A stretch of DNA of 64,000 nt from Paracoccaceae bacterium. Lineage in GTDB: Bacteria; Pseudomonadota; Alphaproteobacteria; Rhodobacterales; Rhodobacteraceae. The notes under the pieces were generated by a model that made no database searches, was not told where the DNA came from, and saw only the letters and a list, made by a program, of their open reading frames with translations. This document shows, in pieces, positions 37,900 to 61,778 of this stretch. The position numbers were made by a program, and so were the translations under genes. The stretch spans positions 64,747-128,746 of the forward strand of contig JAWVXG010000003.1 in NCBI GenBank assembly GCA_033723355.1, written 5' to 3'. The stretch's first letter is position 1, and each line of letters starts with the position of its first letter.

Positions 37900-37982
37900 G
37901 GCGCGGCACCCCTCATCTCATGTGTGTTCAATATAACCAAAAAAGCACACAAAACAAGCTATCATACCCCGTGCGGACACCA

Positions 37983-38288: not shown

Positions 38289-38546
38289 ATCCACGTCCTT
38301 CTCCGTTAAATATCTGAAGAAGCATGAAAACGGCGAGAGCCGGATTTGTCCGTGACGGGTCATCAGACCGCGCCTGACAGATACGATTGATGGGAGAGGG
38401 CCGAGATGGATTGGCGAGTGAACCCGGGCATGCAGGCGAACGGAAAAACAATGCCCGTTTCGGGAAACAAATTTCCGGGCCCGTTCGCGTCAGATCGGAA
38501 AACGAAAGCCAACCCGAGCCGGATCGGCTGAATAGGAAAAAGCAAT

Positions 38547-42430: not shown

Positions 42431-42628
42431 ATGAACGAAGCAGCCGCACCGACAACTCATCTCACCATAAGGGAGGCTGCAAACCTCCTAGGTGTATCTG
42501 TTGCAACGCTAAGAAACTGGGATCGGCAGGACAAACTGAAGCCGCGCCGCCATCCGATCAATGGCTACCGCATGTATGACCGTGCCGAGATCGTGCGGCT
42601 TAAAGAACAAATCGAAGGGAAAGTATGA
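42431..42628 (+). CDS. MerR-family/excisionase-type HTH protein, leader gene of the methyltransferase operon
   Basis: LTIREAANLLGVSVATLRNWDRQDKL. Its stop overlaps the M1 start. Confidence 0.7.
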   Translation: MNEAAAPTTHLTIREAANLLGVSVATLRNWDRQDKLKPRRHPINGYRMYDRAEIVRLKEQIEGKV

Positions 42629-43599
42629 AACCCGCCGCCCAATCTCTCACGGAAAAAGATCAAACGAACCTTCAGCCTGCAAAGCGCCGGGGCCGCCCAC
42701 GCAAAGATGCCGAGCCAAAGGCTATGGTGGAAGCTGAAACAGATAGCGCTGGCCAGGACGACCTTCCCGCCACCGTCGACCCTCGCAATAAACTCAACGA
42801 CCTGACTGCGAAGGAATGGATTCCCGAGACCGTTTCCGTTTGGAATCAGCGCGGGCTTGGTGCCGGGCATCCCGATGCACAGATTGAGCGACAGCATCCT
42901 GCGCCGTTCTCTTTCACGGACGTTGGCCGTCTCATTCGTTTCTTCACCAAGAGAGGCCATACTGTCCTCGACCCCTTCGTTGGCGTTGGCTCAACCTTAA
43001 AGGCCTGCGCGATCGACGAACGCCATGGCATCGGTATCGAACTAAACCCTGATTTTGCGGAGTTGTCTCGGCAGAGGCTTGCTACCGAGGTCCGCGATAT
43101 GTTCTCAACCGTGGACGGGCAGCGCATCCTCGAAGGCGACGCTCGGGATCACTTACCTACACTTGCTGACGAGAGTGTGGATTTTGTCGTAACCAGTCCA
43201 CCCTATTGGTCTATCCTCAAAAAGGTAGACCACAAGGTGCGCCAAGAGCGCACTGGCAAGGGACTAGCCAAAGACTACGGCGAACATGAGGACGACCTTG
43301 CAAAGATCGAAAACTATGACGATTTCTTGCGAGAGCTAGCAGCAATCTTCGGTGAGTGTGCCAGAGTTCTGAAACGTGGCCACTATATGGCAATCATCGT
43401 CAGCGACTTCCGCGACAAATCAAAATACATCATGTTCCACGCCGACTTAGCACGAGCACTGGAAGCCTATGGAATGGAAATGCGCGGCCTTAAGGTCCTG
43501 TATCAGCGCCACAAGAAAGTGTTCCCCTACGGATACCCTTATTCCTACGTCCCCAACATCCACAATCAGTACATCCTAATCCTCCAGAAGCCGAAATAA
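42625..43599 (+). CDS. DNA methyltransferase (N4-cytosine/N6-adenine family; SPPY type)
   Basis: HPAPFSF ... VLDPFVGVGST (AdoMet motif I) lies upstream of the catalytic DFVVTSPPYW. Confidence 0.85.
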   Translation: MKPAAQSLTEKDQTNLQPAKRRGRPRKDAEPKAMVEAETDSAGQDDLPATVDPRNKLNDLTAKEWIPETVSVWNQRGLGAGHPDAQIERQHPAPFSFTDVGRLIRFFTKRGHTVLDPFVGVGSTLKACAIDERHGIGIELNPDFAELSRQRLATEVRDMFSTVDGQRILEGDARDHLPTLADESVDFVVTSPPYWSILKKVDHKVRQERTGKGLAKDYGEHEDDLAKIENYDDFLRELAAIFGECARVLKRGHYMAIIVSDFRDKSKYIMFHADLARALEAYGMEMRGLKVLYQRHKKVFPYGYPYSYVPNIHNQYILILQKPK

Positions 43600-44393
43600 T
43601 GTTAGAATCCCACATCGTTCATGGCGATTGCATTGAAGGGATGGCCGCCCTTGAAGCTGGTTCCTTCAATCTAATTGTGGCCGACCCACCATATAACTTG
43701 AACAAAGATTTTGGTCCGTGGAAGGAGACTGAGCGCAAAGCAGAATGGCGCGATTGGACACGCTCATGGCTAGAGGAAGCCAGCCGCCTCCTCTCTGATG
43801 AAGGTAATATTTTCGTCTATGGGATTCATCACCACATGTGCTGGGTTCAATGCATGATGCTGGAAATGGGATTGATTTACAGGCGTCAGATCATTTGGCA
43901 CTATGAGAATGGCTTTGCCGGCTACGGGAAGCGTTCCCTCAATGCCACCTACGAGCCCTTGCTTTGGTTCTCAAAAACTGACCGCTATATCTTCACGCCC
44001 ATCCGCGAGCCCTACAAAAGTCAGGAACGCCTGAAGCACAAAATAATAAAGAACGGCAAAGTTTGGGAACCCCATCCTGACGGCCGCATGGCTGGTGACA
44101 TTTGGTCATTCCCGACTCTAGCGGGCCGCCGATTCCGTGACGAAAAGGTCAACCACCCGACTCAGAAGCCGCTCTCGATATCTCGAAGAATCGTAAAGCA
44201 CTTCTCCAATCCCGGCGACACGGTGCTTGTGCCTTTTGCCGGCAGTGGGAGCGAGTGCGTAGCGGCCGTTATGGAGGGGAGAGGTTATCTTGGCTTCGAG
44301 CTAAATGGTGAATATATCGAATTGGCGCGCAATCGCATCGACAGTGTTCCGGTCGCCACTGATCCGGACCAGGCAGATATGTTTTCTACTTAG
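43599..44393 (+). CDS. DNA methyltransferase (beta-class N6-adenine/N4-cytosine; DPPY type)
   Basis: Catalytic IVADPPYN near the N-terminus, HPTQKP, then VLVPFAGSGSE. Its start overlaps the M1 stop. Confidence 0.88.
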   Translation: MLESHIVHGDCIEGMAALEAGSFNLIVADPPYNLNKDFGPWKETERKAEWRDWTRSWLEEASRLLSDEGNIFVYGIHHHMCWVQCMMLEMGLIYRRQIIWHYENGFAGYGKRSLNATYEPLLWFSKTDRYIFTPIREPYKSQERLKHKIIKNGKVWEPHPDGRMAGDIWSFPTLAGRRFRDEKVNHPTQKPLSISRRIVKHFSNPGDTVLVPFAGSGSECVAAVMEGRGYLGFELNGEYIELARNRIDSVPVATDPDQADMFST

Positions 44394-45414
44394 CCGGTTT
44401 GAACGCGCCAGCATATGGTTCAATCAGCTTTGCATTATCGAGACCAAGAAATTCGTCCAAGTTCACCACACTTTCACCGATAGTGTATGCGTCGCCGTTA
44501 AAACCGTCGAGCTTCGTGCAATTCCACATGAGTGCGACAAGCGCACCGATCGTGACGGTGCGACATCTGAGACCAAGCACCTTCTCGATGTCGCGGATCA
44601 CCTGATAGTACTCCGAACGGACGTTTGGAAGTGACAGGATGATACTGACAGGATCGATACCATCGACTGCGTAGCCATAGCGGGAGTGCAGCACGGCCAC
44701 GTCCTCGAGAAGCGCGCGTGGGGAATCCAGCACACCTGCGCCTGTTTCAATCTCCGCTACAAATGGTCTTTCGTTGCGCGAGAAACCAACAGCGTCAATG
44801 CGCATGTTGGTATCCCCGCGCCGCCGTGTGCGGGCGTTTAGTCCAACTTCGTTAAGAAGGTTCCTGACGAACAGGGTTGTCCGAGCATCCTCCAGGGACC
44901 CGACAGTTGTCGGAAAATTGGCGGCGGCGGGTGCGTCCAGTGTTGCAATCTGCCCGCTGCGATTCACTTCCGGATGCTCGCCTTTCGTCGCGGCCAAAAC
45001 GACCAGTCCGTCGGGGTCCGCCGTTTCGACGCTGGCGGTCAGACCATTGAGCAAGCTGATTGCGCCGTAGGGGCATCGCCTGATGCACAAACCGCAGCCA
45101 ATGCAATCATCCGCGACGACATAAGCGCTGGAGGCTTCGCTGTCCCAACGGATTGCTCTCGTCGGGCAAACATCGCGGCTGGGATCGCCGGGAAAAGCAT
45201 CGAGAGCGCCGAACAGCGTCAGCTCGCTGTCCTCCTTTTCCATACAGGGTGCGCTGCCGCATCCGAGGCAGCTTCCGGCACCGGAGCGCCCATCAGCCAG
45301 CATGATCGCCGTGCGTGTCTCATGTTCGTAACGCACCCCTTCCACGTTCGCGGCGTAGTGCCGCGCAAATGTCCCAGCTGGGCGTGTGCCTTTGTGAACG
45401 ACGAAATCAGACAT
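44386..45414 (-). CDS. ferredoxin-type 2x[4Fe-4S] domain protein with an uncharacterised C-terminal domain; coupled to the restriction nuclease
   Basis: Eight Cys arranged CLGCGSAPC ... CP and CIGCGLCIRRCP. The start at 45414 overlaps the upstream stop by 8 nt. The C-terminal half contains RIDAV ... FVAEIET. Confidence 0.75.
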   Translation of the reverse strand: MSDFVVHKGTRPAGTFARHYAANVEGVRYEHETRTAIMLADGRSGAGSCLGCGSAPCMEKEDSELTLFGALDAFPGDPSRDVCPTRAIRWDSEASSAYVVADDCIGCGLCIRRCPYGAISLLNGLTASVETADPDGLVVLAATKGEHPEVNRSGQIATLDAPAAANFPTTVGSLEDARTTLFVRNLLNEVGLNARTRRRGDTNMRIDAVGFSRNERPFVAEIETGAGVLDSPRALLEDVAVLHSRYGYAVDGIDPVSIILSLPNVRSEYYQVIRDIEKVLGLRCRTVTIGALVALMWNCTKLDGFNGDAYTIGESVVNLDEFLGLDNAKLIEPYAGAFKPAK

Positions 45415-47116
45415 CAAGGAACCCCCGAAGCTGGCTGAGTTGCCCTGCTTCAATCGTCACGCCATCGCGCATTGCGCGAAGGGTGAGGTGGGCAAGGGTC
45501 GTCAAATCGATCACGCCCAGACGCAGACCAAAGGCTTTGAACACGTCATCAATCAAGTTCGACATCTCGCCGCGTTCGTTGGGAAGGCGATTGCCGACAA
45601 CGAGACTTGCCAAGTCGGGATGTGTTTCCAACCCTCCCCGCGAGAGCAGGATCACCTTGTTTTCGAGCGCCTGCCGAACCGCCTTCGTAGACAGCATGAC
45701 CTCTTCTGTAGGTGACTTGATCTCGACCGGCAGAGCATAGCCATCGACCTTTATATAGGCATCCCAACGCTGGTAATTCACGCCAGCGCGCGAATAATCG
45801 CTCTCAAATCCAAGTATTTGAAAGAGGTGCGTCACTAGCGGGTAGAACGCGGTTTGCGTGTCCTTCGCGTGGTTTTCCGCGAATTTCGCAGCTGCAACAC
45901 TGATCTTGCCGTGAGCTTCCAGCAATTCGGCTAATTCAGCCCTAAGCGTGTCAGGGCCGCCCACGCCAGCCCCTTCTGCCGCGACCAAGTTCGGATGCAC
46001 GAACAAGTGCGAACGGTCGTCCCGCCCGTCCGGGGCTTCCAACGCCATCACACGGCCTTTACCTTCCTCTATGTGGGCGGTTTGCTCACTAGGCGCAAAG
46101 GCGGCGGCAATATCACCAAGCGAAAGGGACTGGAACGGCGAGAACAACAGGTCGCGTCCATCCGCGCCTAACCTCCCGAACACCGGCGCTACGGTAGTTT
46201 CCGCGTCAGCGATGCGCTGCTCAAGCGGCGCGATGTCAAAGCCCGACCGTTCCAGCATACGAAAGTGAGCCACGACGGCGAGCGCGTTGCGCTCTTCCGG
46301 AGCGATCTGCGCCGCCTCATCGGCGCGCAGATCGACGCTGCCGTCTACGCGCTCTGCTAGCATCTGGCCTTTTTCGGTCAGATGGAAGGTTCCGTATTTT
46401 CTGCCATCCCTGAATCTCGCCTGTCCCCGCGTCGCCCATCCCAAATCCCGAAGCAGGGCAATCGGCCATCGCGTGTAGTTCTGCAGCGTGTTGACCTGAA
46501 TCTTCCGCGCATCCGACACCGTTTGCACAGCTTCGCCCGAAGCCACCGCGCTCTCGCGCGCGGCTTCGATAGTCGCTACCACCGCATCCAGATCCTTCTT
46601 GCCGCGATCCCTCGCGGCACTCAGCGGCCCAATGATCATTTCGTCGCGTGACAGGTGGCCGCCGCAAGCCGCCATCACGCGCAAGATGAAGGCAAAAGGT
46701 CGAAGGTCGAAATCGCCCTTCACTGCAAGGATAGGCGTCGGATAAACGATCCCGAGCACGCACTCTTCGAGGAGCGGGCCGAAATCACGCCCGGCCGCGA
46801 CTACTTGCTGGCCAAGCAGTGTGAACGTGAAGTTCAAGGCGCTTTGCGGAGTAGGATGCAGCCATCCCAAAATCCGGAACAATTCAGCATACATCTTGAG
46901 CTGATTGTAGAGCGGATCACGGCTGCGATCAGCGCGGGTAGAACGCGCCACTGCTTCCTCGCCCATGTAGCCTGACGACGTTGCCATATTGGCGGCGACC
47001 ACCGCTGCGACAATCTCGTCGAGGTTTACTGTACGCCCGCTCAATCGCTCGAAAGCCGCCCCATAGACACGTACAAAATTCTCAATTGTGGAGCCTGGAT
47101 TTGGAAATCTCAACAT
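45407..47116 (-). CDS. restriction endonuclease, large subunit (C-terminal PD-(D/E)xK; possibly AlwI/BstNBI-like)
   Basis: RWDAYIKVDGYALPVEIKSP gives a D...E-x-K motif. Lies between the C-protein gene and the FeS gene, convergent with two methyltransferases. Start placed at the ATG at 47116, just after the C-gene stop. Confidence 0.7.
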   Translation of the reverse strand: MLRFPNPGSTIENFVRVYGAAFERLSGRTVNLDEIVAAVVAANMATSSGYMGEEAVARSTRADRSRDPLYNQLKMYAELFRILGWLHPTPQSALNFTFTLLGQQVVAAGRDFGPLLEECVLGIVYPTPILAVKGDFDLRPFAFILRVMAACGGHLSRDEMIIGPLSAARDRGKKDLDAVVATIEAARESAVASGEAVQTVSDARKIQVNTLQNYTRWPIALLRDLGWATRGQARFRDGRKYGTFHLTEKGQMLAERVDGSVDLRADEAAQIAPEERNALAVVAHFRMLERSGFDIAPLEQRIADAETTVAPVFGRLGADGRDLLFSPFQSLSLGDIAAAFAPSEQTAHIEEGKGRVMALEAPDGRDDRSHLFVHPNLVAAEGAGVGGPDTLRAELAELLEAHGKISVAAAKFAENHAKDTQTAFYPLVTHLFQILGFESDYSRAGVNYQRWDAYIKVDGYALPVEIKSPTEEVMLSTKAVRQALENKVILLSRGGLETHPDLASLVVGNRLPNERGEMSNLIDDVFKAFGLRLGVIDLTTLAHLTLRAMRDGVTIEAGQLSQLRGFLDV

Positions 47117-47117
47117 A

Positions 47118-47357
47118 CTATCTATCTGAATTCCTTGCTGAATAAGAAAAAAGTTCGGCCAAATTGATCTCCAGCCCTTCAGCAATTTTCTCGATAACGC
47201 TTAGAGTTGGGTTGCGGTCTCCGCGTTCGACACCGCCTATGTAGCTCCTGTCCAGTCCGGCACGCTCGGCCAACTCTTCTTGTGTGAGCCCAGCCGTCGC
47301 GCGCGCCTGACGGACAGCGTCTCCGAATCTGCTCGAATTCTTGTTTTTTTTCGCCAT
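47118..47357 (-). CDS. XRE-family controller (C) protein
   Basis: 79 aa with the HTH GLTQEELAERAGLDRSYIGGVERGDRNP. Lies immediately upstream of the nuclease, with C-boxes upstream. Confidence 0.85.
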   Translation of the reverse strand: MAKKNKNSSRFGDAVRQARATAGLTQEELAERAGLDRSYIGGVERGDRNPTLSVIEKIAEGLEINLAELFSYSARNSDR

Positions 47358-47380
47358 CGGAACATAATCATCGAGGAGGA

Positions 47381-47406
47381 GACTATGAGTCCACAGACTA
47401 TCAGTA
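47381..47406 (-). promoter_or_regulatory. tandem C-box operator
   Basis: GACTATGAGTC-CACA-GACTATCAGTA has the form GACT-N3-AGTC / N4 / GACT-N3-AGTa. It lies 24-49 bp upstream of the C-gene ATG. Confidence 0.7.
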
Positions 47407-47650
47407 CCATCGATGGGGGTGGCTGCCTTGGGGTCCGTTGAGTTTGCAGCGTTTAACTGAAGAAACCTACCAGCAAACCCTCAAGAGGAACGTGGTTCGC
47501 TTCGGCAGCAAGCTGAGAGCGATGATGCTTGAACCGCATTCAACGAGCGGGTGCTGTTTTGCTATTCTGACTAGGAGCCACGCGCCAATCCCGGCGTAGC
47601 ATCCCGGCCCTCAGGCATGAAATGTCCTGAAATACGCATCATGGTGGTGA

Positions 47651-47905
47651 TCAGAGCAAGCACACCTGAGCCTGTTCACGCATAACGGCGTAGTCCGCGA
47701 GCATCTCCGCGACCGCCGAACCCTCCGGCAGCAGGGCCAGCTCATCAGCCGCGCGCGCCTGAGCCTCGCGGCTGTACTGGACCACTGGCGGGCAAACGAT
47801 GCCGATGGGCGGATTAGAACCGACCGTCGCGCAGCCGCTCAGCAAGCTCGTCGCGATCGCGAGGGCGGCGAGACGCAGCCTCCAGCATCCGGCGTTGGAC
47901 ATCAT
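47651..47905 (-). CDS. outer-membrane lipoprotein, o-spanin candidate
   Basis: Lipobox LLSGC after the signal peptide. Small and Pro-containing. Its start lies inside the preceding gene in another frame. Confidence 0.65.
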   Translation of the reverse strand: MMSNAGCWRLRLAALAIATSLLSGCATVGSNPPIGIVCPPVVQYSREAQARAADELALLPEGSAVAEMLADYAVMREQAQVCLL

Positions 47906-48071
47906 TGGCCTTCTCCGTGGTTTTAAGGCGATCGGCGAGGCGTCCCGCTCGCTCGCCAGACCGCCGAAGCGAAAGCAGGAATAGGAGCACGGCGAGGACG
48001 ATGGCGCCGTAGCGCAGCGCCGCCCGCACCCACGGGCTGGCCGTGATCCCGGTGAGGAGCGCAGCGATCAC
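47814..48071 (-). CDS. small N-terminal-TM protein, i-spanin candidate (or holin)
   Basis: One N-terminal TM segment followed by a charged helical region. Overlaps the lipoprotein gene by 92 nt and the endolysin stop by 4 nt. Confidence 0.5.
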   Translation of the reverse strand: MIAALLTGITASPWVRAALRYGAIVLAVLLFLLSLRRSGERAGRLADRLKTTEKANDVQRRMLEAASRRPRDRDELAERLRDGRF

Positions 48072-48748
48072 CGCCGCCCACGCTTCCAGTCATCGAGCCG
48101 GGCGTAGATCGTGACCGCGATGCCGCCGAGCGCCACGGCGATGAACACCCAGCGCAGGGTGTCGAGATACGGCACAAGCGGCAGGATGGCGGTCTGGGTC
48201 TCGGCCAGGACGCTCTGCGCGACCTCCACGCCCGCAGCACCCAACGTCGCCACACCGGCCGCCCCGCCGCCCTTCATCGTGCGGCTGTCGGCCAGCACCT
48301 CGCGCGCGGGCGGCGTCTCGGCTGCAAATGCCGTCGCCCGCACCGGGAACCGCTCGCCCCACTGGCGCGCGGGGCCGAGGTCGACGTGCATGAAGCCCGA
48401 GCGCGGATAGAACCCGAAGCCGAGGAACCCGACCTCCCGTGCCGCGGCCTCGAACGCCGCCGGGTCGTGGTTCGCCATGGCGATGTCGAAGGCGGCGCCG
48501 TCGAGGTGCTTGGAGCGGGTCGCGCCGCCCACCTTGCGGTTGTGCTCAGGGCTGCGATAGGCGGACCGTACGATCAGCGGCTTGCCCAGCCGGTCGCGCA
48601 GAGCTTGCAGTTTGTCCAGCGCCTCGGGGTGCAGCTTGATCTGCCCCGTGCCACGGCAGGCGATTTCGGCGGGCGAGAAGTTCGGCCACCGCCAAAGGTT
48701 CTGCGGCACATCGCGGAAATGGCGGAAGGTGCGAATGGGTTCAGACAT
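48068..48748 (-). CDS. peptidase M15-type (D-Ala-D-Ala carboxypeptidase-like) endolysin with a C-terminal TM segment
   Basis: SAYRSPEHNRKVGGATRSKHLDGAAFD ... MHVD zinc-ligand pattern of M15 peptidases. Hydrophobic C-terminal helix. Confidence 0.75.
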   Translation of the reverse strand: MSEPIRTFRHFRDVPQNLWRWPNFSPAEIACRGTGQIKLHPEALDKLQALRDRLGKPLIVRSAYRSPEHNRKVGGATRSKHLDGAAFDIAMANHDPAAFEAAAREVGFLGFGFYPRSGFMHVDLGPARQWGERFPVRATAFAAETPPAREVLADSRTMKGGGAAGVATLGAAGVEVAQSVLAETQTAILPLVPYLDTLRWVFIAVALGGIAVTIYARLDDWKRGRR

Positions 48749-51718: not shown

Positions 51719-54700
51719 TCAGGTGCCCCAGAGGAAGCCCCAGCCGCGATCCCAGCCGGCAGCAAAGGGCGCGGTGAGCCGGAACCGGCGCGCCTCGCGG
51801 TCGGTGAGCCAGGCGCCTCCAACCAGACGACGCGAGCGCACGGCGAGGTCGATCTCGGCGGTCCGCTCCGGCGCGCCGGTCTCGGGGATGTCCTCGGGCG
51901 CCAGCGTCCAGCTTGTGCCGGTGCCAGCATCAATGACGATGCCGGGCGGCATGAGCGCTGCGCCCGTGTCGGGGTCGATCCAGCGCACCTCAATCGCGTA
52001 ACCGACGCCTGGCTCCGGCCCGATGGAGGCTGCGGTGTGATCGACGATCACGGGGCTTGTCTGGGTCAGCCGGTCCCGATGTGTCCAGGTCAGCACCAGA
52101 TCATCGGCGATCAGCGCATCGACATCGGGAGCATAGCTGCCATTGGCCTGCACCCGACCGGGCGGCAGGGGCCGGATGGCGCGCCGGTCGAGCGTCACGC
52201 TGTCCTCGGGCGCCAGCGCGAAGGCGAGCGTGCCACGCCCCGTTTCGGGTAGAAGCCGGATCGCGAGGGTCTCGCCTGCCGCCCAGCTGTCCTCGGTGAT
52301 CCGCGCGCCCTCGTCGAAGAAGATCACTGGCGTATCTGCGTCATGCGCCCTCGGCACGGTATCGAGGCATCCCCTGCCAACGGTGATGGCCGTTGAGGTG
52401 ATCCCGTCGACGCGCACCAGTTCGCCACCGAGGCTCGCCAGTGTGCCGATCCCGACCTCGCCGATGTCGCGCCAGCCGGTGACCGGGAGAACGCGCGCCT
52501 CCGGGCTATAGGTCACGTCAGCAGCGAGCAGCGCCATGGGTGCGAAGGCGACCACGCCCTCCTGTGCCGGGCCCGTGCCAGGATCGATCCAGAGCTCGGC
52601 CGCCAGCGCATCGGCACTGGGACGTTCACCGGTGGCGACCACCGCGCCCGCATCAGGATCCTCCGACAGGATCCGGTCGGCCTCACTGTGACCGAGTTCG
52701 CGGACCAGCAACCAGTACGGGGCTTCCTCCACCATGCGGCGGGACAGTGCGCGCGGCGGAGCAGCGACCCCTGACCCGGTCGGCATGCGCCCGCCTGCGA
52801 TGGCAGTGGCTCCCAGTGCAAAGACGTCCTCGGCGAGCTTCAGCCGGATGCCGTTGTCGCGGCCGTCGCCCTGACCGATCTCCGAGATGCGCATGACAAC
52901 ATCGTCGAGCCCGAGGCGGGGCGACCGCAGTCGGATCACATCGCCGGGCCCGAGATCCGCGCCTTCGCGGTTCACCACGATCTCGCCCGTAAGCAGCGGT
53001 ACCGAGAGCGCCCGCAGGTCGCGCTCGGCCACACGGATCGCCAGCCCCTGGTAGCGGATGCCCGGATAGTCGAGCGTGGTGGCGATCACCTCGCCCATGG
53101 ACTGGACGCGCGCGGTGTCGGTGACAGAGACCGCCCCCGTGTCGTCGGTCCAGGCATCGGTGAAACGCACGGCGACGCTGTTAACCAGATCCGACGGCGC
53201 ACGACGCCCCAGCCTCCCCCAATCCACGACATTGGTCTCGTCGAACAAGGGCAGTGCGCTGGCCGTGTAGTCGGCCCGGATCAGCCTGATCTCCCAGAGC
53301 CCGGTGCGCCGGTCGATGAAGAGCGTCGCGTCGATATGGTCGAGAACGCTGCCGATGAACTCCTCGATGGAACTGTCCTGCTGCCAGATCAGCGACAGGC
53401 CAAAGCCCTCGGTGTAGAGCGTGTCCGCGGCGGTCGTGAAACTCGCCCCGATCTCGACCGTGGAATAGCCAAGCCCCCAGTCACGGTTCGTCAGGCACTC
53501 CCGGATGATATGGGCCGGGTTCATATCCGGGCCGTTCCCGAAGGCGCCGCGCAGGGAGGCAACCAGCGCCTGCGGGTTGCCGGCCGGGATCACCGGCACG
53601 CCGTCCACGGGCGTGTTGTCGATGCGCGCGGTAGAGGTCGTGTTCGCGAGCGCGATGTTGAAGCCGAAGATGTCGGCGGGCGGCAGGGTGCGGATGATCG
53701 CCAGCGCCGCGTCGACCGAAGAGACCGGCGATGGCTCGCCATCGGTCACGAAGATCACGATCCGCCGCTTCGACCCGCCGCCCGCGAAAAACGCTCCCGC
53801 CTGCGAAAAGGCGGCATCGAAGCTGGTTCCACCAGCGGTGCTGTTCGAGAGCGCCAGCATCCAGGCTTCGAGCGCGGCATAGTCGTCCGGGCCCATGTTA
53901 CGGCGCTCGATCGCGCCTGCAACGCCCGCGTTCCAGAGCACGATGCGGATGTCGTTCGGCCGGTCGGGATCGACGCTGGCCCCGATCTCGCGGATGAGCG
54001 CCGCGACGCCCGCCTTTTGGGCCGCCATTCGGGTGCCGGACATCGAGCCCGAGACATCGAGCGCGATGTAGATCGCCGCGTCCGAGATATTGGCCTCGGG
54101 CACGATGGCGGCCTTCTCGGGGTACCATTGCGCTGCACCCGCTTCGCCCGTCAGCACGCGGGTCACGCGCACCGCCCAAGGCTTCAGGTACGGGTTGATG
54201 CCGAGATAGACCTGCCGCAGCACGAGGCTGCAGAGTCCGCGATAGCCGGGCACGTCGCCATTCATGGCTGCTGCGAGGTAATCGTTCTGCCCTTGGGCTG
54301 GCCCGCCCATCAGCACATCGACATCGCCGCGAATGCCCCCCTCGCGGCTGTCGCCGCCGAAGAGGTCGGGCTTGTCGATACGGATACGCCCGCCACCGGC
54401 ACCTGTGTTGCTGGCGGCGGTGGTCGCCTCGAACACCTCGACCGCTTGCGTGGGGAAGCTCAGCGCCTCGGGCAGCACGGACCACGCGGTCACATTGGTG
54501 GCGGCGTTGAAGGTAACACCGCGCAGCGTGATGGTCTGGCTCGTGCCATTCGCCAATTGCAGCCGGTAGTCCCGGCCGATGCGCACCCCGGCGCGCGTCC
54601 CCGGAAAGGTGATCGTGGCGCCGGTATCGCCCGCCAGCGCGGCAGTGGCGGTCATGCCTGCAACCGCGCCGATCCGCGTCTCCACGGCAGCACCACCGCC

Positions 54701-54850
54701 CGAGACGCCGCCGCCGGTCGTGACAGACCAGGCGGTGCGGCGGTCAACGAGGATCTCGCGGATGGCATCGATCGGCCCATGGCAGAGCGCCAGATGCATC
54801 CCCAGCGAGTACCGGAAGCCAACAGTCTGCGCCTTGCTACGCCCGCCCAT
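51719..54850 (-). CDS. host-specificity / central tail fibre protein (lambda gpJ / GTA g15-like) with an embedded vWA domain
   Basis: N-terminus MGGRSKAQTVGFRYSLGMHLALCHGPID parallels the start of lambda J. 1043 aa. MIDAS motif DVSGSMSG ... T ... VTDG at residues about 258-375. Confidence 0.8.
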   Translation of the reverse strand: MGGRSKAQTVGFRYSLGMHLALCHGPIDAIREILVDRRTAWSVTTGGGVSGGGAAVETRIGAVAGMTATAALAGDTGATITFPGTRAGVRIGRDYRLQLANGTSQTITLRGVTFNAATNVTAWSVLPEALSFPTQAVEVFEATTAASNTGAGGGRIRIDKPDLFGGDSREGGIRGDVDVLMGGPAQGQNDYLAAAMNGDVPGYRGLCSLVLRQVYLGINPYLKPWAVRVTRVLTGEAGAAQWYPEKAAIVPEANISDAAIYIALDVSGSMSGTRMAAQKAGVAALIREIGASVDPDRPNDIRIVLWNAGVAGAIERRNMGPDDYAALEAWMLALSNSTAGGTSFDAAFSQAGAFFAGGGSKRRIVIFVTDGEPSPVSSVDAALAIIRTLPPADIFGFNIALANTTSTARIDNTPVDGVPVIPAGNPQALVASLRGAFGNGPDMNPAHIIRECLTNRDWGLGYSTVEIGASFTTAADTLYTEGFGLSLIWQQDSSIEEFIGSVLDHIDATLFIDRRTGLWEIRLIRADYTASALPLFDETNVVDWGRLGRRAPSDLVNSVAVRFTDAWTDDTGAVSVTDTARVQSMGEVIATTLDYPGIRYQGLAIRVAERDLRALSVPLLTGEIVVNREGADLGPGDVIRLRSPRLGLDDVVMRISEIGQGDGRDNGIRLKLAEDVFALGATAIAGGRMPTGSGVAAPPRALSRRMVEEAPYWLLVRELGHSEADRILSEDPDAGAVVATGERPSADALAAELWIDPGTGPAQEGVVAFAPMALLAADVTYSPEARVLPVTGWRDIGEVGIGTLASLGGELVRVDGITSTAITVGRGCLDTVPRAHDADTPVIFFDEGARITEDSWAAGETLAIRLLPETGRGTLAFALAPEDSVTLDRRAIRPLPPGRVQANGSYAPDVDALIADDLVLTWTHRDRLTQTSPVIVDHTAASIGPEPGVGYAIEVRWIDPDTGAALMPPGIVIDAGTGTSWTLAPEDIPETGAPERTAEIDLAVRSRRLVGGAWLTDREARRFRLTAPFAAGWDRGWGFLWGT

Positions 54851-55043
54851 CGCATGCCTCCCGCTGCTCGGCGATCGTGATCACCGGCTCCACCAGCGCA
54901 TCCCCGGTCGCGCGCAGCCGATCGACCTCGATGCCGTGAGCAAGGAAATCCTGCCAGTCCAGCCCATGGCGGCGGAACCATGGCCGCACGCCTGCGAGGC
55001 AATAGCGGGCATCGCGCAGGTCCTGGATCGTCACGCGGGTCAC
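54837..55043 (-). CDS. small phage protein (68 aa) between the I-like and J-like genes
   Basis: GTG start overlapping the upstream stop (GTGA). Its 3' end overlaps the J start by 14 nt. No motif recognised. Confidence 0.4.
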   Translation of the reverse strand: MTRVTIQDLRDARYCLAGVRPWFRRHGLDWQDFLAHGIEVDRLRATGDALVEPVITIAEQREACDGRA

Positions 55044-55288
55044 TTCTTTCCGCCTTTCTTCTTGATCGGATCAACCTTCAGGTCGCCTGCCCAGACGACG
55101 TTCGGCCCGGTGATCAGCACCGTCCCGAACACCACCGGGATCGGCCGACCCTCCTCGGCGGTGGGCAGCGAAAAATCATCGAGCCCTGCGGCTTGCGGCT
55201 TCTCGACCTTGGGGCGCGGGCTCAGCGCATAGGAAATCGCCGAGAGCACCAGCCCGAGGACGAGCCGTGCGATAAAGGTCCAGACCAT
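55040..55288 (-). CDS. tail assembly protein, lambda gpI C-terminal-domain-like
   Basis: A hydrophobic N-terminus followed by PTAEEGRPIPVVFGTVLITGPNVVWAGDL parallels the gpI C-terminus (NVLPVLYGEMRVGSRVV). Confidence 0.6.
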   Translation of the reverse strand: MVWTFIARLVLGLVLSAISYALSPRPKVEKPQAAGLDDFSLPTAEEGRPIPVVFGTVLITGPNVVWAGDLKVDPIKKKGGKK

Positions 55289-55459
55289 GGATGGTGCTCA
55301 CGATGGGTTGCAACAGTCAGCGAGTCGTTGTTCTTGATAGGATCGTCGCTGGACGCTTCGTACCCGTCTGCGTCCAGATCAAAGGGCGAAAGATCTTGAA
55401 CGATTTACCGGCACTGGCAGTGGCATAAGCCCAGTCCGCATAATAGAAGACGCTACGAT

Positions 55460-56272
55460 ATGATAATACAATTGGGGGTGACCTTGCGGATGGCTGGCAC
55501 ATTAATGAATGCGCTTGGTGTCAGCTTAGTCATGACTTTGTCGCTCTACCTTTGGCGCTCTTTTTATCCCGCAACTGATTTTGCTGCCTTTTTTCTTGTG
55601 CCTTTGTCAGTGTTAGTTTTCATAGGATCTCTCTGGGCTGGATCTGCAGTGCATCGGGCCAGCATGAAGGCTGCAGTGCGAGGGGACTCACCCCTTGCAT
55701 GGCTCTTAACCGGAAGGCTTCGGGCAATTTTTGGAGCATCTCTATTTATTATTGTTGCTGCGCCTCTCCTCGCGTGGCACGCAATCTCATCAACCCTTCC
55801 CGAATTTATCCTGTTTGGGTTCCTATGCTTCGTCGCATCGATGCTGTTCGCCGGCATCGAGAAAAGATTGCTCCGACACCTCACACCCGCATTCGCACGA
55901 GCGACCGCTTTGACAGCAGCAACTTTGGTCGCGTGCGCGATTTTCATTCCAGTCCTCGCGTGGGCTAATTGGAATTTCACTCTTCAGCCCGGTGCGATCA
56001 GATCTGCGAGTCTCGAGCAGGCTCTACAACTTGGGTTTGACCAGCTACCGGCACGCCGAGGTTGGGTTGCAGAGATAATGGCGCCGCTTTACGCACTCGA
56101 GTACGCAAAGCTCTGGTTCGCAGTGCAAGCAGGTTCACCCAAGTGGTTTTCTTTCTGGTACAGCATCGATGCCGCGCTGATAAGCATTATCGCTGCGCGA
56201 GTGAGCACTGTCTTGATGTCCATAGTCCATCGTACCAGAGGGAGCTTTAATGAGCCAAAGCCTCAACACTGA
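55460..56272 (+). CDS. polytopic membrane protein (moron gene 1)
   Basis: At least 5 predicted TM helices. Lower GC than the flanks and on the opposite strand to the tail operon. Confidence 0.6.
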   Translation: MIIQLGVTLRMAGTLMNALGVSLVMTLSLYLWRSFYPATDFAAFFLVPLSVLVFIGSLWAGSAVHRASMKAAVRGDSPLAWLLTGRLRAIFGASLFIIVAAPLLAWHAISSTLPEFILFGFLCFVASMLFAGIEKRLLRHLTPAFARATALTAATLVACAIFIPVLAWANWNFTLQPGAIRSASLEQALQLGFDQLPARRGWVAEIMAPLYALEYAKLWFAVQAGSPKWFSFWYSIDAALISIIAARVSTVLMSIVHRTRGSFNEPKPQH

Positions 56273-57248
56273 CAAGCAAGTGGCTGAACCCGATCACAAA
56301 CGGAATAAAAGGATTGTTTCCCTCTCCTTCTGGGCAACGGTCTTTTTTCTTGCTTTCGCAACAATTGGACTCATGCTCGCCAGTCGCCCGCACGTGGTGG
56401 GTATACCTCATCCTCAGACGGTCGAATTGCCTCGGACAACGCTCGAAAGGCTTCTCAGTGAAACTGCAGTTGCTGCGATCCAAGTGGTTGAATTGGATAT
56501 CGATTCTCTGCTGGACACCGTATACGGACCAGCTTACGCAGCCATTTCGGAGTATGCGACCTTCCATTACTCTGTTCTCGGCCAGTACGTCGAGCTAACT
56601 GCGGCAGTCCAGGGCCAGATGAGCGAAGGCATAAACGACCGTATATTTGAGGGCTTCGAGCAACGCCTGACAGACGCTGCGTCGGTACTAGATCAACGAT
56701 ATGTTGAGGCTTATAGAACCATACTGCAGGATCAGATAGCGGCTCAGCTTGCGACAGATGGCATTTCGCTCCCATTGGGTGAGATCACCGACGCCGTATT
56801 ACAGGACGCGGTTGCCAGGGCTCAGACAACTTTGCCCCTTGGCGCAGTTGCTGCGGGCATCGTTGGAAGCGGGTCACTTAGGGCAGTCTCTGCAGCCATT
56901 GCGGCAAAATTGGCGACCAAGATTACAGCCAAGCTGGCTGCCTCGGGCGTGATCAAGGGAGGCACCATCTTTGCCGGCGCGGGGGGTGGCGCGCTTTTGT
57001 GCTCATGGAGCGGCCCTGGCGCGGTTTTGTGTGGTGTCGTCGGAGGGGCCGCTGCTTGGTTGTTGACCGACGCGGTCGTGGTAAACCTCGACGAATATTT
57101 CAATAGAGAAGAGTTTGAGAGCGACCTTAGAACGTTACTGGATGAAGATCGGGCCAGAATACGCGGTATCCTTCTCGTCGCATTGGAAGACAAGGCTGCG
57201 GCGATTGACGAGCAAACGGACCAGATTTTCAGGTTGCGTGACCTCTGA
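56250..57248 (+). CDS. membrane protein with a glycine-zipper-rich hydrophobic region (moron gene 2)
   Basis: N-terminal TM IVSLSFWATVFFLAFATIGLMLA. GAVAAGIVGSGS ... FAGAGGGALLCSWSGPGAVLCGVVGGAAAWLL. Overlaps gene 1 by 23 nt. Confidence 0.6.
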   Translation: MSQSLNTDKQVAEPDHKRNKRIVSLSFWATVFFLAFATIGLMLASRPHVVGIPHPQTVELPRTTLERLLSETAVAAIQVVELDIDSLLDTVYGPAYAAISEYATFHYSVLGQYVELTAAVQGQMSEGINDRIFEGFEQRLTDAASVLDQRYVEAYRTILQDQIAAQLATDGISLPLGEITDAVLQDAVARAQTTLPLGAVAAGIVGSGSLRAVSAAIAAKLATKITAKLAASGVIKGGTIFAGAGGGALLCSWSGPGAVLCGVVGGAAAWLLTDAVVVNLDEYFNREEFESDLRTLLDEDRARIRGILLVALEDKAAAIDEQTDQIFRLRDL

Positions 57249-57317
57249 TCCCGTTACCGGAGTGTTTCAAGTTAGCTCAAATTTTCGCCGCGTCGGGATA
57301 GGCAGATTTTTCTCCTG

Positions 57318-58184
57318 TCATACGATGCTCCCTCCGTCAAAGGGGTTGCGGCCGGGGATCTCGGGGAAGCCCCCAAAGTTGGCGAGGTTGCCGAACTTCG
57401 CGGCGCAAGTGGCGGCGCGCAGATCGCAGCCCGGGGCGATGTCGGCGAGAACCGGGAGCGGTGTGCCGGTTTCCGGGTCGATCTCCGGCGCAGCGAGCGC
57501 CGCCGCCAGTTCCGGCATCGGGCGCGACAGCGAGAGGATGGCCCCGGCATGGCCGGTGATGAACCCGAGTTGCGCCCCAAACCTGAGCACACCGCCCCGG
57601 TACCAGCCGGTTGGCTCGGCTGCCGATTCGGGGATCGTCAGGCTTGAGGCGTTGCCGGATACGGCCGTCACCGTGCCGGTCAGCCAGTAGAGCGCGATGT
57701 CGAGTCCGCAGCCCCGACCATAGAGCGCATGGCGGCAAAGCCGCTGGTACTTCGCCCGCACGCCCGCGCGACGCAGCGTGCTGAAGATCGACTCCGCCTG
57801 CAGGAGGATGCGCTGCCCCTCGACCTCTGCGCCCACCACGCGGCCCTTCCAATGCGCGACCGTCTCGCCCAGCACCTGCTCGTGCCCGCGGAAGATCGTC
57901 AGCGTCACGGGTGTGGTGCCCAAGGGGGCGAGGAAGCGCCGCGCGAAAGGATGCGAGAGCGGCCAGGTCAGTTCCAGCCGCCCGCGCTCGATCTCGCTCG
58001 TCTGCACCACATCCCCATGGGCGACGGCGGCAGGCTCCCAGGTGATCTCGGTCCCGCCGCTCCCCGCGCTGGTCCAAGCCGTGGCGCGGCTGGTGAAACG
58101 CCAGACCTGATCGCCTTCCACGAACTGGTAGAGGAAATAGGGGCGGCCCTCTGCGACCGAGGCTTCGATGCTTGCATAGGTCAT
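57318..58184 (-). CDS. minor tail protein, lambda gpL-like (DUF2163 plus BR0599-type C-terminus)
   Basis: Four-Cys pattern CRHALYGRGC ... GCDLRAATC and terminal FGGFPEIPGRNPF, as in BR0599/gpL-type proteins. Confidence 0.7.
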   Translation of the reverse strand: MTYASIEASVAEGRPYFLYQFVEGDQVWRFTSRATAWTSAGSGGTEITWEPAAVAHGDVVQTSEIERGRLELTWPLSHPFARRFLAPLGTTPVTLTIFRGHEQVLGETVAHWKGRVVGAEVEGQRILLQAESIFSTLRRAGVRAKYQRLCRHALYGRGCGLDIALYWLTGTVTAVSGNASSLTIPESAAEPTGWYRGGVLRFGAQLGFITGHAGAILSLSRPMPELAAALAAPEIDPETGTPLPVLADIAPGCDLRAATCAAKFGNLANFGGFPEIPGRNPFDGGSIV

Positions 58185-59353
58185 GTGGGCACCTCGATGA
58201 CAGGCAGCGTGACCTCGCTCGCCACAGCGCCATGCTGGATCTCGACGCGGTCGGCATCCGCGCGCATCGCGGTCAGAACATGCACCTTCGTCGTGAGCGA
58301 AACCGGCTCGCCCAAGTTCGAGGACAGCGTGAGCCGGTGATCCGCGCCCTCGGCGATGGCGGCGGTGATCGTCCGGAAGCGCAGTGCGGTCGGCATTTCC
58401 AGCAGGATCGCGCGGCCGACATAGGCCGGGAGCGACGCGACCGGCGCCACGCGCATCAGCGTGGAACCAGAGGTCATGGCTGCGCGCAGCTGCAGCTCGC
58501 GCCCCCAGGTCGGCAGCCAGAAGCTGGCCTGGCGCCCGCGAAGCGACCAGAGCCAGCGGCGCAGGCCGTGGCGTGCGGCCGGGCCTTGCGCCTTCAACGT
58601 GATCGTCTCGCCCCGCTCGAAGACGTCACGCAGCGGCTCAACCACAACCGGGCCGAAGCCATTGTCGACGTATTCGACCGCGCGGCGCAGGCTGGCGCTG
58701 AGCGGGCGGCGCACAAGACTCGGGTCGGTCTGGACCGGGCGGCCGAGATAGGTCGGCAGCACCGGTGCGGTGATGTCCGGCGCATCGCGCAGCAGGAAGC
58801 TGGTCGTGACCGTGCCATCTCCCTGCCTGCGGCGCGCAACCTCGATGGCCGAGGTCAGCACGCCTGCGCGGATCGGCGCGACCGTGATGCGCGGGGCAGC
58901 AACCATCGGACTGGGCAGTTGCAGCACCAGAGGCTCCGCCAGGATCAGCCGGTCGGCCAGAACGCTGGCGATGGACACGGCCGCCGCCTCACGGCCATCG
59001 ACCGTGATCGCTGCCAGTTCCCCGCTGCGAAAATCCGAGAGCCCCGTGTCAAGCAGGATCTCGGTCGCGCCTTGCACCAGGTCCGCCACTGGCAGCAGCG
59101 CCATGTGCCAGAGCGGCACATGCCAGTCGCCCGCGAACCCGGCGCGGGCGAGTTCCGCGGCGCGCGCCATCCCCAGCGCGTCGAGCCTGTGCCGGAACGT
59201 CACTATCTCCCGCGGGTGGGGCCGGAGCGCGATGCGCTGTTCGCCCGCGCGCGATGTCAGCACATCGGTGCGCCATTCCAGCACTTCGGTGATCTCCTGC
59301 GCTGCCGGGAAGGGCCAGAACAGCAGCGGCAGTGGGCCTCCAACCTCAGGCAT
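58181..59353 (-). CDS. distal tail protein (position of lambda gpM / GTA g12)
   Basis: Lies between the tape measure and the gpL-like gene, with 4-nt and 8-nt overlaps. The call is positional only. Confidence 0.5.
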   Translation of the reverse strand: MPEVGGPLPLLFWPFPAAQEITEVLEWRTDVLTSRAGEQRIALRPHPREIVTFRHRLDALGMARAAELARAGFAGDWHVPLWHMALLPVADLVQGATEILLDTGLSDFRSGELAAITVDGREAAAVSIASVLADRLILAEPLVLQLPSPMVAAPRITVAPIRAGVLTSAIEVARRRQGDGTVTTSFLLRDAPDITAPVLPTYLGRPVQTDPSLVRRPLSASLRRAVEYVDNGFGPVVVEPLRDVFERGETITLKAQGPAARHGLRRWLWSLRGRQASFWLPTWGRELQLRAAMTSGSTLMRVAPVASLPAYVGRAILLEMPTALRFRTITAAIAEGADHRLTLSSNLGEPVSLTTKVHVLTAMRADADRVEIQHGAVASEVTLPVIEVPT

Positions 59354-61778
59354 TCAGCGCACTCCGGTTCCGGCGGATGACGTTCAGGATGGCCCGCTCT
59401 CCCGAGGGTGTGGCGAGATAGTCGCCGACCACGGACGGGTCGAGCACGTTGATGATGCGCGTCGACATGTCCTGCGCCGGTTGGGCGGGTGCGCTGTTCA
59501 TCTCGACCCCGAGCCGCCCGTCGCGCCCACGCCGCAGCGGCAGGATCGCCTCGGGCCCTGCTTCGCCCATCAGTCCGATCCCGCGGGAGAACGGGAACAC
59601 TGTGGGCCGGTTCACTACGCCGCCGCGCGCGAAAGCCGTCAGTTCGTGGCCACCTGCAAATGCGCCGCCCCTGGCGAAGCCGAACAGGCTCGCGAAGAAC
59701 CCGCCACCGCCGCCCATGCCCGAGAAGGCCCGCATCAGCGCGTTCTCGATCGGCTTGAAGGCCAGCTCGATCAGCCGGTTCGCGAGGTTCTGCGCGATGC
59801 GCGAGATGGCGCTGGCAAAGGTCTCCCAGGTGAACTCGCCGGACTGCAGCGCCTCCTTGATCGGGCCGACAATGTCCTGCGCGAGGCCTTGGGCGATCTC
59901 GCGCGAGCGTTCCTGTGCCGCACGGACCGCCTCGGCGGTGGCCTCCCAGGCGCCACGTGCCGTATCGGCCGCCTCACGCAGAGCCTGACCAGCGCCGCGA
60001 CCAGCACCACCTGCGCGACCCGCAGCCCCACCGGTGGCATCAAGCGACTCTCCCAGCCCGTCGGCGGCCGTGCGCGCGCCGTTAAGCGCCGCTTCCGCGT
60101 CGAGACCGCTACCCGTCACCGCCTCGCGCAGGGCGGCAATGGACTCGAGCGGTGCTGTCGCCGCTTCCGCCACACCGGTCATCGTCGCGCGCAGGGCCTC
60201 GGCCTGGCCGCGCGCTTCCTCTGCGTAAGCATTCAGCCCGAGGTCCGGCATCCTGATCGGCTCGGCAGTGAACGCCGCCTGGAACGCTGCCCTTGCCTCG
60301 GCCCCGGCCTCAGCCGCCGACCCCGCGAACGGGTTCTCGATCCGCCCCAGTTCCAGATTGCCGATCAGCGAAATCCGCCGCTCGATCCCCAGCGCCTCGA
60401 GCCCGCCATTGATCCCCTCGAGGAAACCGTTGATCCGCTGCCCGACGCCATTGAGCATGGCTTCGACGCCCGCGATCAGCGCATTCGCCGCCTGAAACGC
60501 GAAATCCCCGATCGCCGCGGGCAGTGCGCCCCAGAGCACCTTGATCGCGTCGAGCGCCCCCTGGAAGGTGTTCAGCGCCCCGTTCCCGAAACCGACCACG
60601 GCTTGCAGCGAGGTCTGCAGCGCCTCGGCGATGGCGGCCTTGATATCGGCCCAACTCGCCATGATCGCGAGACCCATGGCGACAGCGCCGAGCTTCATGC
60701 GCTCCCAGACCTCGCGGGCAAGATCGCCCAGAAGGGAGAGCGCGTTGCCGAAGCCGCCCGCACCGCGCACCAACTGACCGAACCAATAGATCAGCTCGCC
60801 CGCGCCCACGATGAGCGCACCGATCCCGGTGCGGATGATCGCCCCGCGCAGGAGCGTCAGCGCGCCCGCGAGGCTGATGGTGGCGACCTGCGCTGCAATG
60901 AACCCCGCAACCCAGCGCGCAGCCATGAAGCCCGCGAAGGCAATGCCGATGGCTGCCAGCCGCTCCATGTTGTCGGCGAGCCCGATCAGTGCTGCGGCCA
61001 CCGTCGATGTGGCACCGACCATCTGGTCCCAGGTGCCGATCAGCTGCAGCGCGGCATTGCCGATCAGCGTGAAGGCATCGCCGATGGTCGCCGGCATGCT
61101 GTCGGCTTCCTCGCGCAGCAGCTCGAGATTGCCGATCAGCGCCGTACGGATCACCTCGCCGGTGATCCCGCCCTCCTGGCCCAGCCTGCGCAAGCCCGAG
61201 ACGGTGGTGCCAAGCTCTTCCGCCAGCAGTTCGGCCAGCCGCCCACCATTCTGGATCACCGTGTTGAGGTTGTCCCCGCTGAGAGTACCAAGCGCCATGG
61301 CGCGCGACAGCGCGGTCTGGACCGAGGCCGCGCGTTCGGCACGCGCGCCGGACACCACCATCGCATTGTTCAGCGCCTCGGTGAAATCCAGCGACTCCGC
61401 TGTCGTCAGCCCCAGCTCACGCAGCGCCGTGGCATTGGCCAGCCAGGACTCCGTGGTCTGGCCGAGGCTCGAATAGGTCCGCCGCGCCATGGCGGCGAGC
61501 CGTTCCATGACAGCAGCGCCGGCCTCCTGCGAACCCGTCGCCAGATCGACGCGCGAGCGCAGATCGGTCCACTGGTCGGCATAAGCCACGAGCTGGCGCG
61601 TGCTGATCGCAGCCCCGAGGATGCCCATGACCCGGCGCACCACGGCGCCGGTGATGTCGGCCTGCCGCTCGATCCGCTTGAAATTGCGCTCGCCTGCATC
61701 GCCGATCCCCTGGAATTCGGCCTTCACCTGCCTGCCGCCCTCGGCAACGAGGCGGACGGAAACGCGCTTCTGGGCCAT
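59346..61778 (-). CDS. tail tape measure protein
   Basis: 810 aa, Ala/Gly-rich helical repeats with hydrophobic segments. Lies directly downstream of the G/GT chaperone pair. Confidence 0.85.
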   Translation of the reverse strand: MAQKRVSVRLVAEGGRQVKAEFQGIGDAGERNFKRIERQADITGAVVRRVMGILGAAISTRQLVAYADQWTDLRSRVDLATGSQEAGAAVMERLAAMARRTYSSLGQTTESWLANATALRELGLTTAESLDFTEALNNAMVVSGARAERAASVQTALSRAMALGTLSGDNLNTVIQNGGRLAELLAEELGTTVSGLRRLGQEGGITGEVIRTALIGNLELLREEADSMPATIGDAFTLIGNAALQLIGTWDQMVGATSTVAAALIGLADNMERLAAIGIAFAGFMAARWVAGFIAAQVATISLAGALTLLRGAIIRTGIGALIVGAGELIYWFGQLVRGAGGFGNALSLLGDLAREVWERMKLGAVAMGLAIMASWADIKAAIAEALQTSLQAVVGFGNGALNTFQGALDAIKVLWGALPAAIGDFAFQAANALIAGVEAMLNGVGQRINGFLEGINGGLEALGIERRISLIGNLELGRIENPFAGSAAEAGAEARAAFQAAFTAEPIRMPDLGLNAYAEEARGQAEALRATMTGVAEAATAPLESIAALREAVTGSGLDAEAALNGARTAADGLGESLDATGGAAGRAGGAGRGAGQALREAADTARGAWEATAEAVRAAQERSREIAQGLAQDIVGPIKEALQSGEFTWETFASAISRIAQNLANRLIELAFKPIENALMRAFSGMGGGGGFFASLFGFARGGAFAGGHELTAFARGGVVNRPTVFPFSRGIGLMGEAGPEAILPLRRGRDGRLGVEMNSAPAQPAQDMSTRIINVLDPSVVGDYLATPSGERAILNVIRRNRSALNA

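Follow-up and report, generated by a model that had tools for sequence, protein, structure and literature searches.

Morons, as described by Juhala and Hendrix, are pieces of extra DNA that separate genes which are neighbours in related phages; they have a deviant composition as well as their own promoter and terminator, and they are expressed from the repressed prophage. Prophages also carry two-gene defence modules, such as RexAB of lambda and gp30/gp31 of mycobacteriophage Sbash, each with a polytopic membrane component that is thought to be depolarising. In the tail operon of HK97, the moron product gp15 is an inner-membrane superinfection-exclusion protein that comes from the chromosomal YebO family (PMC3594210), and it blocks superinfecting phages at DNA entry (Cumby et al. 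2012; reviewed in PMC3594210). Here, we describe a cassette of two membrane-protein genes, A and B, that interrupts the tail operon of a prophage in a Paracoccaceae bacterium. It lies in a 64,000-nucleotide (nt) stretch of contig JAWVXG010000003.1, hereafter called the window, in which all positions are counted (Table 1).

Like HK97 gp15, the A-B cassette is extra DNA of deviant composition in a siphovirus tail operon and codes for inner-membrane proteins of a mainly chromosomal family. Unlike gp15, which is one small protein, it encodes two proteins of 260 and 332 amino acids (aa) on the opposite strand. Homology of A or B to YebO/gp15 was not detected, with no Pfam or PHROG match and no fold similarity. 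With RexAB and Sbash gp30/gp31, the cassette shares the layout of a two-gene module in a prophage with a polytopic membrane component. However, RexA and gp30 are soluble sensors and these modules belong to the immunity region, whereas A and B are both membrane proteins encoded in the tail operon and show no homology to these systems in PADLOC.

Insertion of the A-B cassette into the tail-tip operon

All tail genes of the prophage are on the minus strand, with ends that overlap or abut, the sole exception being the junction between the L-like gene and the gene of an 82-aa protein (p82). At this place, 2,029 nt separate the two genes and hold two open reading frames (ORFs) on the plus strand, 55460..56272 (270 aa) and 56250..57248 (332 aa), which overlap each other by 23 nt. 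The G+C content (GC) falls from 0.67-0.70 in the flanks to 0.50-0.58 across the cassette, with a value of 0.533 for the unit 55302..57287, and GC at third codon positions is 0.52 and 0.57 in the A and B ORFs compared to 0.82-0.88 in the tail genes. The ORFs, the GC, the hydropathy and a glycine-zipper block confirm the report of a first-pass annotation, made from the sequence of the window, that two low-GC plus-strand membrane genes sit amid minus-strand tail genes.

We then compared the locus with 79 related loci, fetched from species genomes through the L-like protein, and with two isolated phages, and mapped the proteins of the module on all of them. Among the 74 related loci that hold both the L-like gene and the 82-aa gene, on which all gap counts are based, the two genes are 12-149 nt apart in 70 cases, and none of these tail loci carries A or B. 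Those relatives that come closest (94-96% identity in L, 100% in p82) have a gap of 12-13 nt, and 8-9 nt lie between the L stop and the p82 start in close relatives, where the empty site reads ...CCATCGTCTGA-GAACGCCC-ATGGTCTGG. The flanking genes show no loss: residues 1-288 of L align with the closest relatives at 94-96%, p82 spans positions 3-78 of the 78 of PHROG 1180 and matches its counterparts in the uninterrupted loci L006-L009, L016 and L049 at 100% identity, and each of the six tail-tip proteins can be aligned with those of relatives over its whole length, at 91-100% identity. The order in the isolated and viable phages Pseudomonas PaMx74 and Xanthomonas Elanor is tape measure protein, a protein of ~376 aa, L, 77 aa, 67-70 aa and J, and about 70 related Rhodobacteraceae prophages likewise have L, then a gene for 77-82 aa, a gene for ~68 aa, and J. 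An MPN or NlpC/P60 domain, as found in the K protein of lambda, is present in none of the tail-module proteins of the window, and there is no such gene in PaMx74, Elanor or the related prophages. Since the 74 related loci and the isolated phages carry no K gene, its absence is the norm of this lineage. Thus, because the relatives are without K and p82 is full length and identical to theirs, the cassette is very probably a clean insertion of ~2 kb into a 9-nt spacer, and nothing was replaced.

The same unit is found outside phages. Window positions 55302..57287 align at 93.3% DNA identity with positions 9050..11038 of L001, a metagenomic non-phage contig, in which the pair again forms a low-GC island (0.527 vs 0.685), flanked by genes for a cold-shock protein and a peptidase M3, and with no phage genes near. 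On the p82 side of the insert, GTGAGCACCATCC, followed by ATG, is similar to the L stop and spacer of relatives such as L021 (TGAGCATCATCC), and the junction holds a 5-nt microhomology, CCATC, that is shared with the end of the unit. We looked for terminal inverted repeats at 55302/57287, a target-site duplication, a recombinase gene and an attC site at or in the unit and found none of them. An integron, insertion sequence (IS) or transposon cassette was rejected for want of terminal repeats, target duplication and recombinase, the 5-nt microhomology being all that the junction shows. In the scenario we propose, a lower-GC stretch of ~2.0 kb, taken from a mobile gene pair of the chromosome, would have entered the tail operon at the 8-9-nt spacer that separates L and p82, through illegitimate (microhomology) recombination. 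The recipient would have been a prophage of the lambda-E/D-capsid siphovirus type, and no tail gene would have been deleted or truncated. Together, the GC, the empty sites and the copy in L001 support the first-pass view that the cassette is a horizontally acquired moron with two membrane proteins, and it has the classical features of extra DNA between otherwise adjacent genes and of deviant nucleotide composition.

On the other side of the insert, identity to the closest relatives drops from ~91% overall to only ~77% in the final ~36 nt of the L-like gene (57288-57355 region), the C-terminus of L being still near-identical (DGGSIV vs GGSSIV) and followed by the 30 orphan nt. It is possible that the cassette came via an earlier, more divergent phage and then by recombination; we checked whether a divergent donor phage had contributed a recombination tract, a question that the divergent ~36 nt are too short to decide.

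Extra genes at this position are not restricted to the window. Independent inserts are found at exactly the same junction: L064 (6847-7944) has a 1.1-kb insert on the opposite strand with a PIN7 gene and a GC of 0.54 vs 0.70, and L051, L053 and L062 (about 6847-7482) have an insert of ~640 nt with an ORF of ~200 aa that has no Pfam match. Moreover, the neighbouring junction, between the gene of the 390-aa distal tail protein and L, is occupied in 21 related loci by cargo of lower GC, 0.6-4.8 kb in size and on either strand. This cargo includes an AT3-SGNH acyltransferase (L043), an AlkZ-like glycosylase (L078), a 1,355-aa CheB-CheR-PAS-kinase-receiver hybrid (L014), an MFS-like protein, a DUF305 protein and several orphans. 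The inserts at both junctions fit the classical moron pattern. Hence, whatever A and B do, two junctions in the tail-tip operon are cargo hot spots in this very common lineage of prophages.

The A and B proteins and their family

By aligning the homologues of A, we placed its family-consensus start at the ATG at 55490, which gives a protein of 260 aa and is preceded by the Shine-Dalgarno sequence GGGGGTGA (55474-55481). Protein A has six predicted transmembrane (TM) helices with both termini inside, according to hydropathy and the positive-inside rule, and a conserved loop of 71 aa between TM5 and TM6 that is rich in Trp, Pro and Arg and predicted to be periplasmic. Its AlphaFold2 model is of good quality (pLDDT, the predicted local distance difference test, 87; pTM, the predicted TM-score, 0.84). 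In Foldseek searches against PDB and BFVD nothing came up for A at E<0.1, the top PDB matches being rhodopsins and AmtB (E>=0.17), and a profile search with A returned unannotated proteins only.

Gene B has a Shine-Dalgarno sequence of its own, GGGAG at 56240-56244, within the 3' end of A. Its product starts with a basic N-terminus and a TM helix at residues 25-43, followed by an acidic helical domain of 155 aa that is predicted to be periplasmic and in which H106, S108, Y113 and E115 of an FHYSVLGEY motif are invariant. Then come an amphipathic helix rich in Lys and Ala and a Gly-zipper hairpin (about 236-273), in which Cys251 and Cys261 are almost invariant; the helix at the C-terminus is acidic. 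AlphaFold2 models B as an all-helical bundle (pLDDT 72.5) with low confidence in the Gly-zipper segment. Foldseek found nothing in PDB for B at E<0.1, and a profile search in 1.84 billion proteins gave unannotated proteins only.

In their layout, A and B resemble the pairs MotAB, ExbBD, TolQR and ZorAB, that is, the genes overlap, and a polytopic protein is followed by a bitopic one whose N-terminus is basic and which has a single TM helix and a periplasmic domain. Unlike these stator pairs, A has six TM helices instead of three or four, and the TM helix of B lacks a conserved acidic residue. A stator of the MotAB/ExbBD/ZorAB kind was rejected, with no match to Pfam MotA_ExbB or OmpA, none to ZorA or ZorB in PADLOC, and no Foldseek similarity. 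A ClyA-type alpha pore-forming toxin was also rejected for B, ClyA chains reaching just E=0.22-0.55 with a TM-score of 0.14, and so was a holin or spanin, given the wrong strand and the missing PHROG match.

Searches with A and B against Pfam (to E=10), PHROGs and NCBIfam gave no credible match, and profile searches against PDB sequences gave chance-level matches only. The B profile nevertheless collected 1,258 clusters (50% identity), of which 347 fall below 1e-30. In 33 of 39 genomic loci from Alphaproteobacteria, Gammaproteobacteria and Verrucomicrobiota, A immediately precedes B, and 9 of the top 150 representatives are natural A-B fusions (P0105, P0118, P0122, P0124, P0126, P0142, P0168, P0174 and P0175), some of which may be gene-calling artefacts. 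About a third of the best B matches are long forms of the P0108 type with a conserved C-terminal extension of ~220 aa, the B of the window being a short form. Ten long or fused relatives of B had no Pfam match, and the gene that follows B in some genomes proved not to be homologous to the extension of the long form. By tblastn of B against 72,556 plasmids, we found one weak partial match only. Compared with the L001 copy, the ratio of nonsynonymous to synonymous substitution rates (dN/dS) is 0.43 in A and 0.14 in B, which shows, at the level of codon substitutions, that both genes are under purifying selection. A-B is thus a real, constrained two-component membrane module, and the two proteins most likely form one inner-membrane complex, as their gene order and the fusions would suggest. 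The gene family is new and unnamed, while the insertion of a moron as such is a known phenomenon.

Genomic neighbourhoods, proposed function and competing explanations

The relatives closest to the window pair, a mobile clade with at least 55% identity to its B and a GC of 0.49-0.53, were examined in ten genomic contexts, for which raw counts are given. In seven of the ten, genes of defence systems (Zorya, pVip, CBASS, GmrSD, AIPR, PDC) lie at a distance of at most 10 kb. A complete type I Zorya adjoins the copy in L131, and the neighbourhoods hold GmrSD, CBASS and NACHT genes in L137, AIPR in L135, PDC-M26A and McrBC-like genes in L002, and GmrSD with insertion sequences in L003. Furthermore, a trio made of pVip (E=1e-82), an AIRS/PurM-like gene and a thymidylate-synthase-like gene (ThyA) lies directly upstream of A-B in the same orientation in L121 (6444-11011), L132 (6421-11008) and L133. 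Two distinct mobile elements are represented by these loci, namely a Sulfitobacter island that has a serine recombinase and an element with MOB, type IV coupling protein (T4CP) and IS66, so that the trio and A-B could be a five-gene unit or the product of repeated co-transfer. In two IMG/VR proviruses, the pair adjoins a serine integrase.

On these grounds, we tentatively propose that the A-B complex of this prophage targets incoming phages at the cytoplasmic membrane. The translationally coupled genes A and B would be transcribed in the lysogen, where the late operon on the other strand is silent, and the complex would either block genome entry, as a superinfection-exclusion system like HK97 gp15 or P22 SieA, or respond by opening of its Gly-zipper element, with membrane depolarisation and abortive infection. 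This expression in the lysogen, the assembly of A and B into a complex and any activity against phages are what we infer. With somewhat greater reserve, we suggest that A-B represents an unrecognised two-component anti-phage system, fully embedded in the membrane and widespread in Proteobacteria, that might move among defence islands, integrative elements and, in this case, a tail operon. Should A and B protect lysogens, the anti-phage repertoire would gain a new module that is purely membrane-based, and 55302..57287 would be a clonable 2-kb unit for entry block or abortive infection in marine and freshwater Rhodobacteraceae. The first-pass annotation had also seen a superinfection-exclusion or abortive-infection pair here; as a hypothesis this is still plausible, while neither protein resembles a known defence or exclusion protein.

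Several observations weigh against an anti-phage role. First, in PADLOC-DB v2.0.0, A has only a spurious match to CARF_TM (E=0.14) and B has no match at E<=1. Second, carriage by phages is rare: a tblastn search with B found the A-B pair in none of 50,697 phage genomes, the pair occurs in only 2 of 2.9 million IMG/VR contigs, and just one instance of the present insertion is known. Third, island copies can be degraded, since in L131 (606-977) A is truncated at its 5' end to the C-terminal 123 aa beside Zorya, and in L137 (10001-10753) B is truncated with an IS transposase immediately upstream. Fourth, distant members of the family, with at most ~54% identity to the window B, have host-like GC and conserved housekeeping neighbourhoods, such as lgt, a methyltransferase gene and yfiH before A-B and ybjN after it in Paracoccus, a place after metG in Mameliella and Antarctobacter, and that of L136. 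Because only ~8-10 of 132 neighbours of 24 genome loci in the wider family match PADLOC, the family taken together is not one dedicated to defence. Fifth, scanning the cassette strand with a sigma-70-type consensus, which may not suit alphaproteobacterial promoters, gave no convincing sigma-70-like promoter, and no convincing intrinsic terminator was found on this strand.

The cassette could instead serve host physiology, for instance envelope homeostasis, stress tolerance or a transport or channel function, which would make it a case of ordinary lysogenic conversion by a borrowed operon. We regard this as rather unlikely, yet as the stronger of the two main alternatives. The host-like GC and conserved housekeeping contexts of most family members favour it, as do the size and age of a family with 1,258 clusters over several phyla and the lack of homology of A and B to defence proteins. 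In addition, the adjacent hot spot carries cargo unrelated to defence (the CheB-CheR-kinase hybrid, the MFS-like and DUF305 proteins), and general accessory genes also gather in defence islands. However, the closest clade has seven of its ten contexts in defence islands or mobile elements, and neither A nor B matched a fold or family of transporters, enzymes or stress proteins.

That the insertion is a recent accident without selective value seems improbable. In such a case the pair would not be usefully expressed, 2 kb of antisense DNA might lower the expression of the p82, 68-aa and J genes, and the prophage would be impaired. The single known instance of the insertion, the near absence of the family from phages and the failure to detect a promoter or terminator on the cassette point that way; the sole promoter-like element was a -10-like GATAAT at 55462-55467. 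Also, the 8-9-nt spacing between the L stop and the p82 start in close relatives suggests a translational coupling that is now lost, and the antisense insert may have a polar effect on the downstream tail genes. Against an accident, A and B are intact with a dN/dS below 1 relative to the nearest copy, the tail genes are all intact, scanning and folding found no minus-strand terminator inside the insert, and related prophages tolerate inserts of 0.6-4.8 kb at both junctions and on either strand.

The first-pass annotation had gone further and assumed that the cassette took the place of a gpK/g14-like gene and the 5' part of gpI, leaving an 82-aa remnant of gpI and perhaps a tail-defective prophage. 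The comparison with the 74 related loci refutes this. In lambda and in RcGTA, the gene transfer agent (GTA), K or g14 (MPN plus NlpC/P60) does follow L or g13 and, with gpI in lambda, occupies the slot between L/g13 and J/g15, and the L-like protein of the window has a BR0599 domain, which we take to be carried by RcGTA g13 as well. In contrast, a K-like gene is absent from this slot in all related phages and prophages: about 70 related prophages, PaMx74 and Elanor have L directly before the gene for 77-82 aa, and the order L-K-I-J that had been expected among relatives is in fact L, p82, ~68 aa and J. The slot of the window lineage is filled by the intact 82-aa and 68-aa proteins, which are full-length members of PHROG 1180 and PHROG 1196; p82 thus cannot be a truncated gpI, being identical to the protein of uninterrupted relatives, and the insertion lies in what is a spacer of 8-9 nt in relatives. 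As all six tail-tip genes are full length, the sequence gives no evidence for a defective tail. The lambda/GTA gene order does not hold for this prophage lineage, and the error that came from using it as a template is corrected here.

Regarding the assembly, an independent Logan contig (L128), probably built from the same reads, equals the window at 100% over 14.9 kb and covers both junctions, and an exact search for the junction in 185,579 species genomes gave no match. A chimera of a phage contig joined to unrelated low-GC DNA by the metagenome assembly is hardly credible, for even if the source is a 253-kb metagenome scaffold and the junction occurs in no isolate genome, the ENA scaffold and the Logan contig agree at 100% at both junctions, phage genes are contiguous and correctly ordered on both sides of the insert, and microhomology with a retained spacer is what real recombination would leave.

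Further features of the window

Coordinates of the cassette, of the tail-tip module and of an accessory region are collected in Table 1. The late region comprises further genes on the minus strand, for the tail tube, a DUF2793 fibre-like protein and an M15 endolysin. In and around the cassette, folding of both of its ends gave unremarkable z-scores and Rfam detected no RNA family in 54800-57600; the regions upstream of A-B are not conserved across the close clade.

Table 1. Features of the window (positions in the 64,000-nt stretch)
Feature	Position	Strand	Description
Acquired unit	55302..57287	+	1,986 nt: 188-nt leader, gene A and gene B; ends set by alignment
Gene A	55490..56272	+	260-aa inner-membrane protein (270 aa if start is 55460)
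Gene B	56250..57248	+	332-aa membrane protein
Orphan stretch	57288..57317	.	30 nt, from unit to L stop codon; unlike both L001 and empty sites
Residual spacer, p82 side	55289..55301	-	Minus-strand reading GTGAGCACCATCC
L-like tail-tip gene	57318..58184	-	288 aa; Phage_BR0599 and phiJL001 gp84 N domains; PHROG 778; intact
82-aa tail protein (p82)	55040..55288	-	PHROG 1180, full length, intact
68-aa tail protein	54837..55043	-	PHROG 1196; length as in relatives, PaMx74 gp35 and Elanor gp43
J-like central tail-tip protein	51719..54850	-	1,043 aa; Phage-tail_3 with VWA insert; intact
Distal tail protein	58181..59353	-	390 aa; PHROG 1082; intact
Tape measure protein	59346..61778	-	810 aa; TMP_3
Methyltransf_35	33074..34021		Lower-GC region 33000-48000
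HATPase_c_3 protein	34018..35403		Lower-GC region 33000-48000
Dcm-type C5 methylase	35484..36602		Lower-GC region 33000-48000
Large serine recombinase	38547..40118		Lower-GC region 33000-48000
Two N6/N4 DNA methylases	42625..44393		Lower-GC region 33000-48000
592-aa orphan	45407..47185		Lower-GC region 33000-48000
Two ParB/RepB-like genes and 4Fe-4S protein			Lower-GC region 33000-48000

The von Willebrand factor A (VWA) domain of the J-like protein covers residues ~260-390, upstream of Phage-tail_3. A second and larger region of lower GC (0.47-0.61) extends over 33000-48000, from the host genes to the M15 endolysin gene (48068..48748), and looks like the integrase-proximal accessory or defence region of the prophage. 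Finally, this prophage type can occur several times in one genome, with three or four copies each in Ruixingdingia sedimenti, Roseovarius autotrophicus and Alterinioella nitratireducens (L009/L018/L030; L012/L032/L037/L040; L010/L059/L064/L066).

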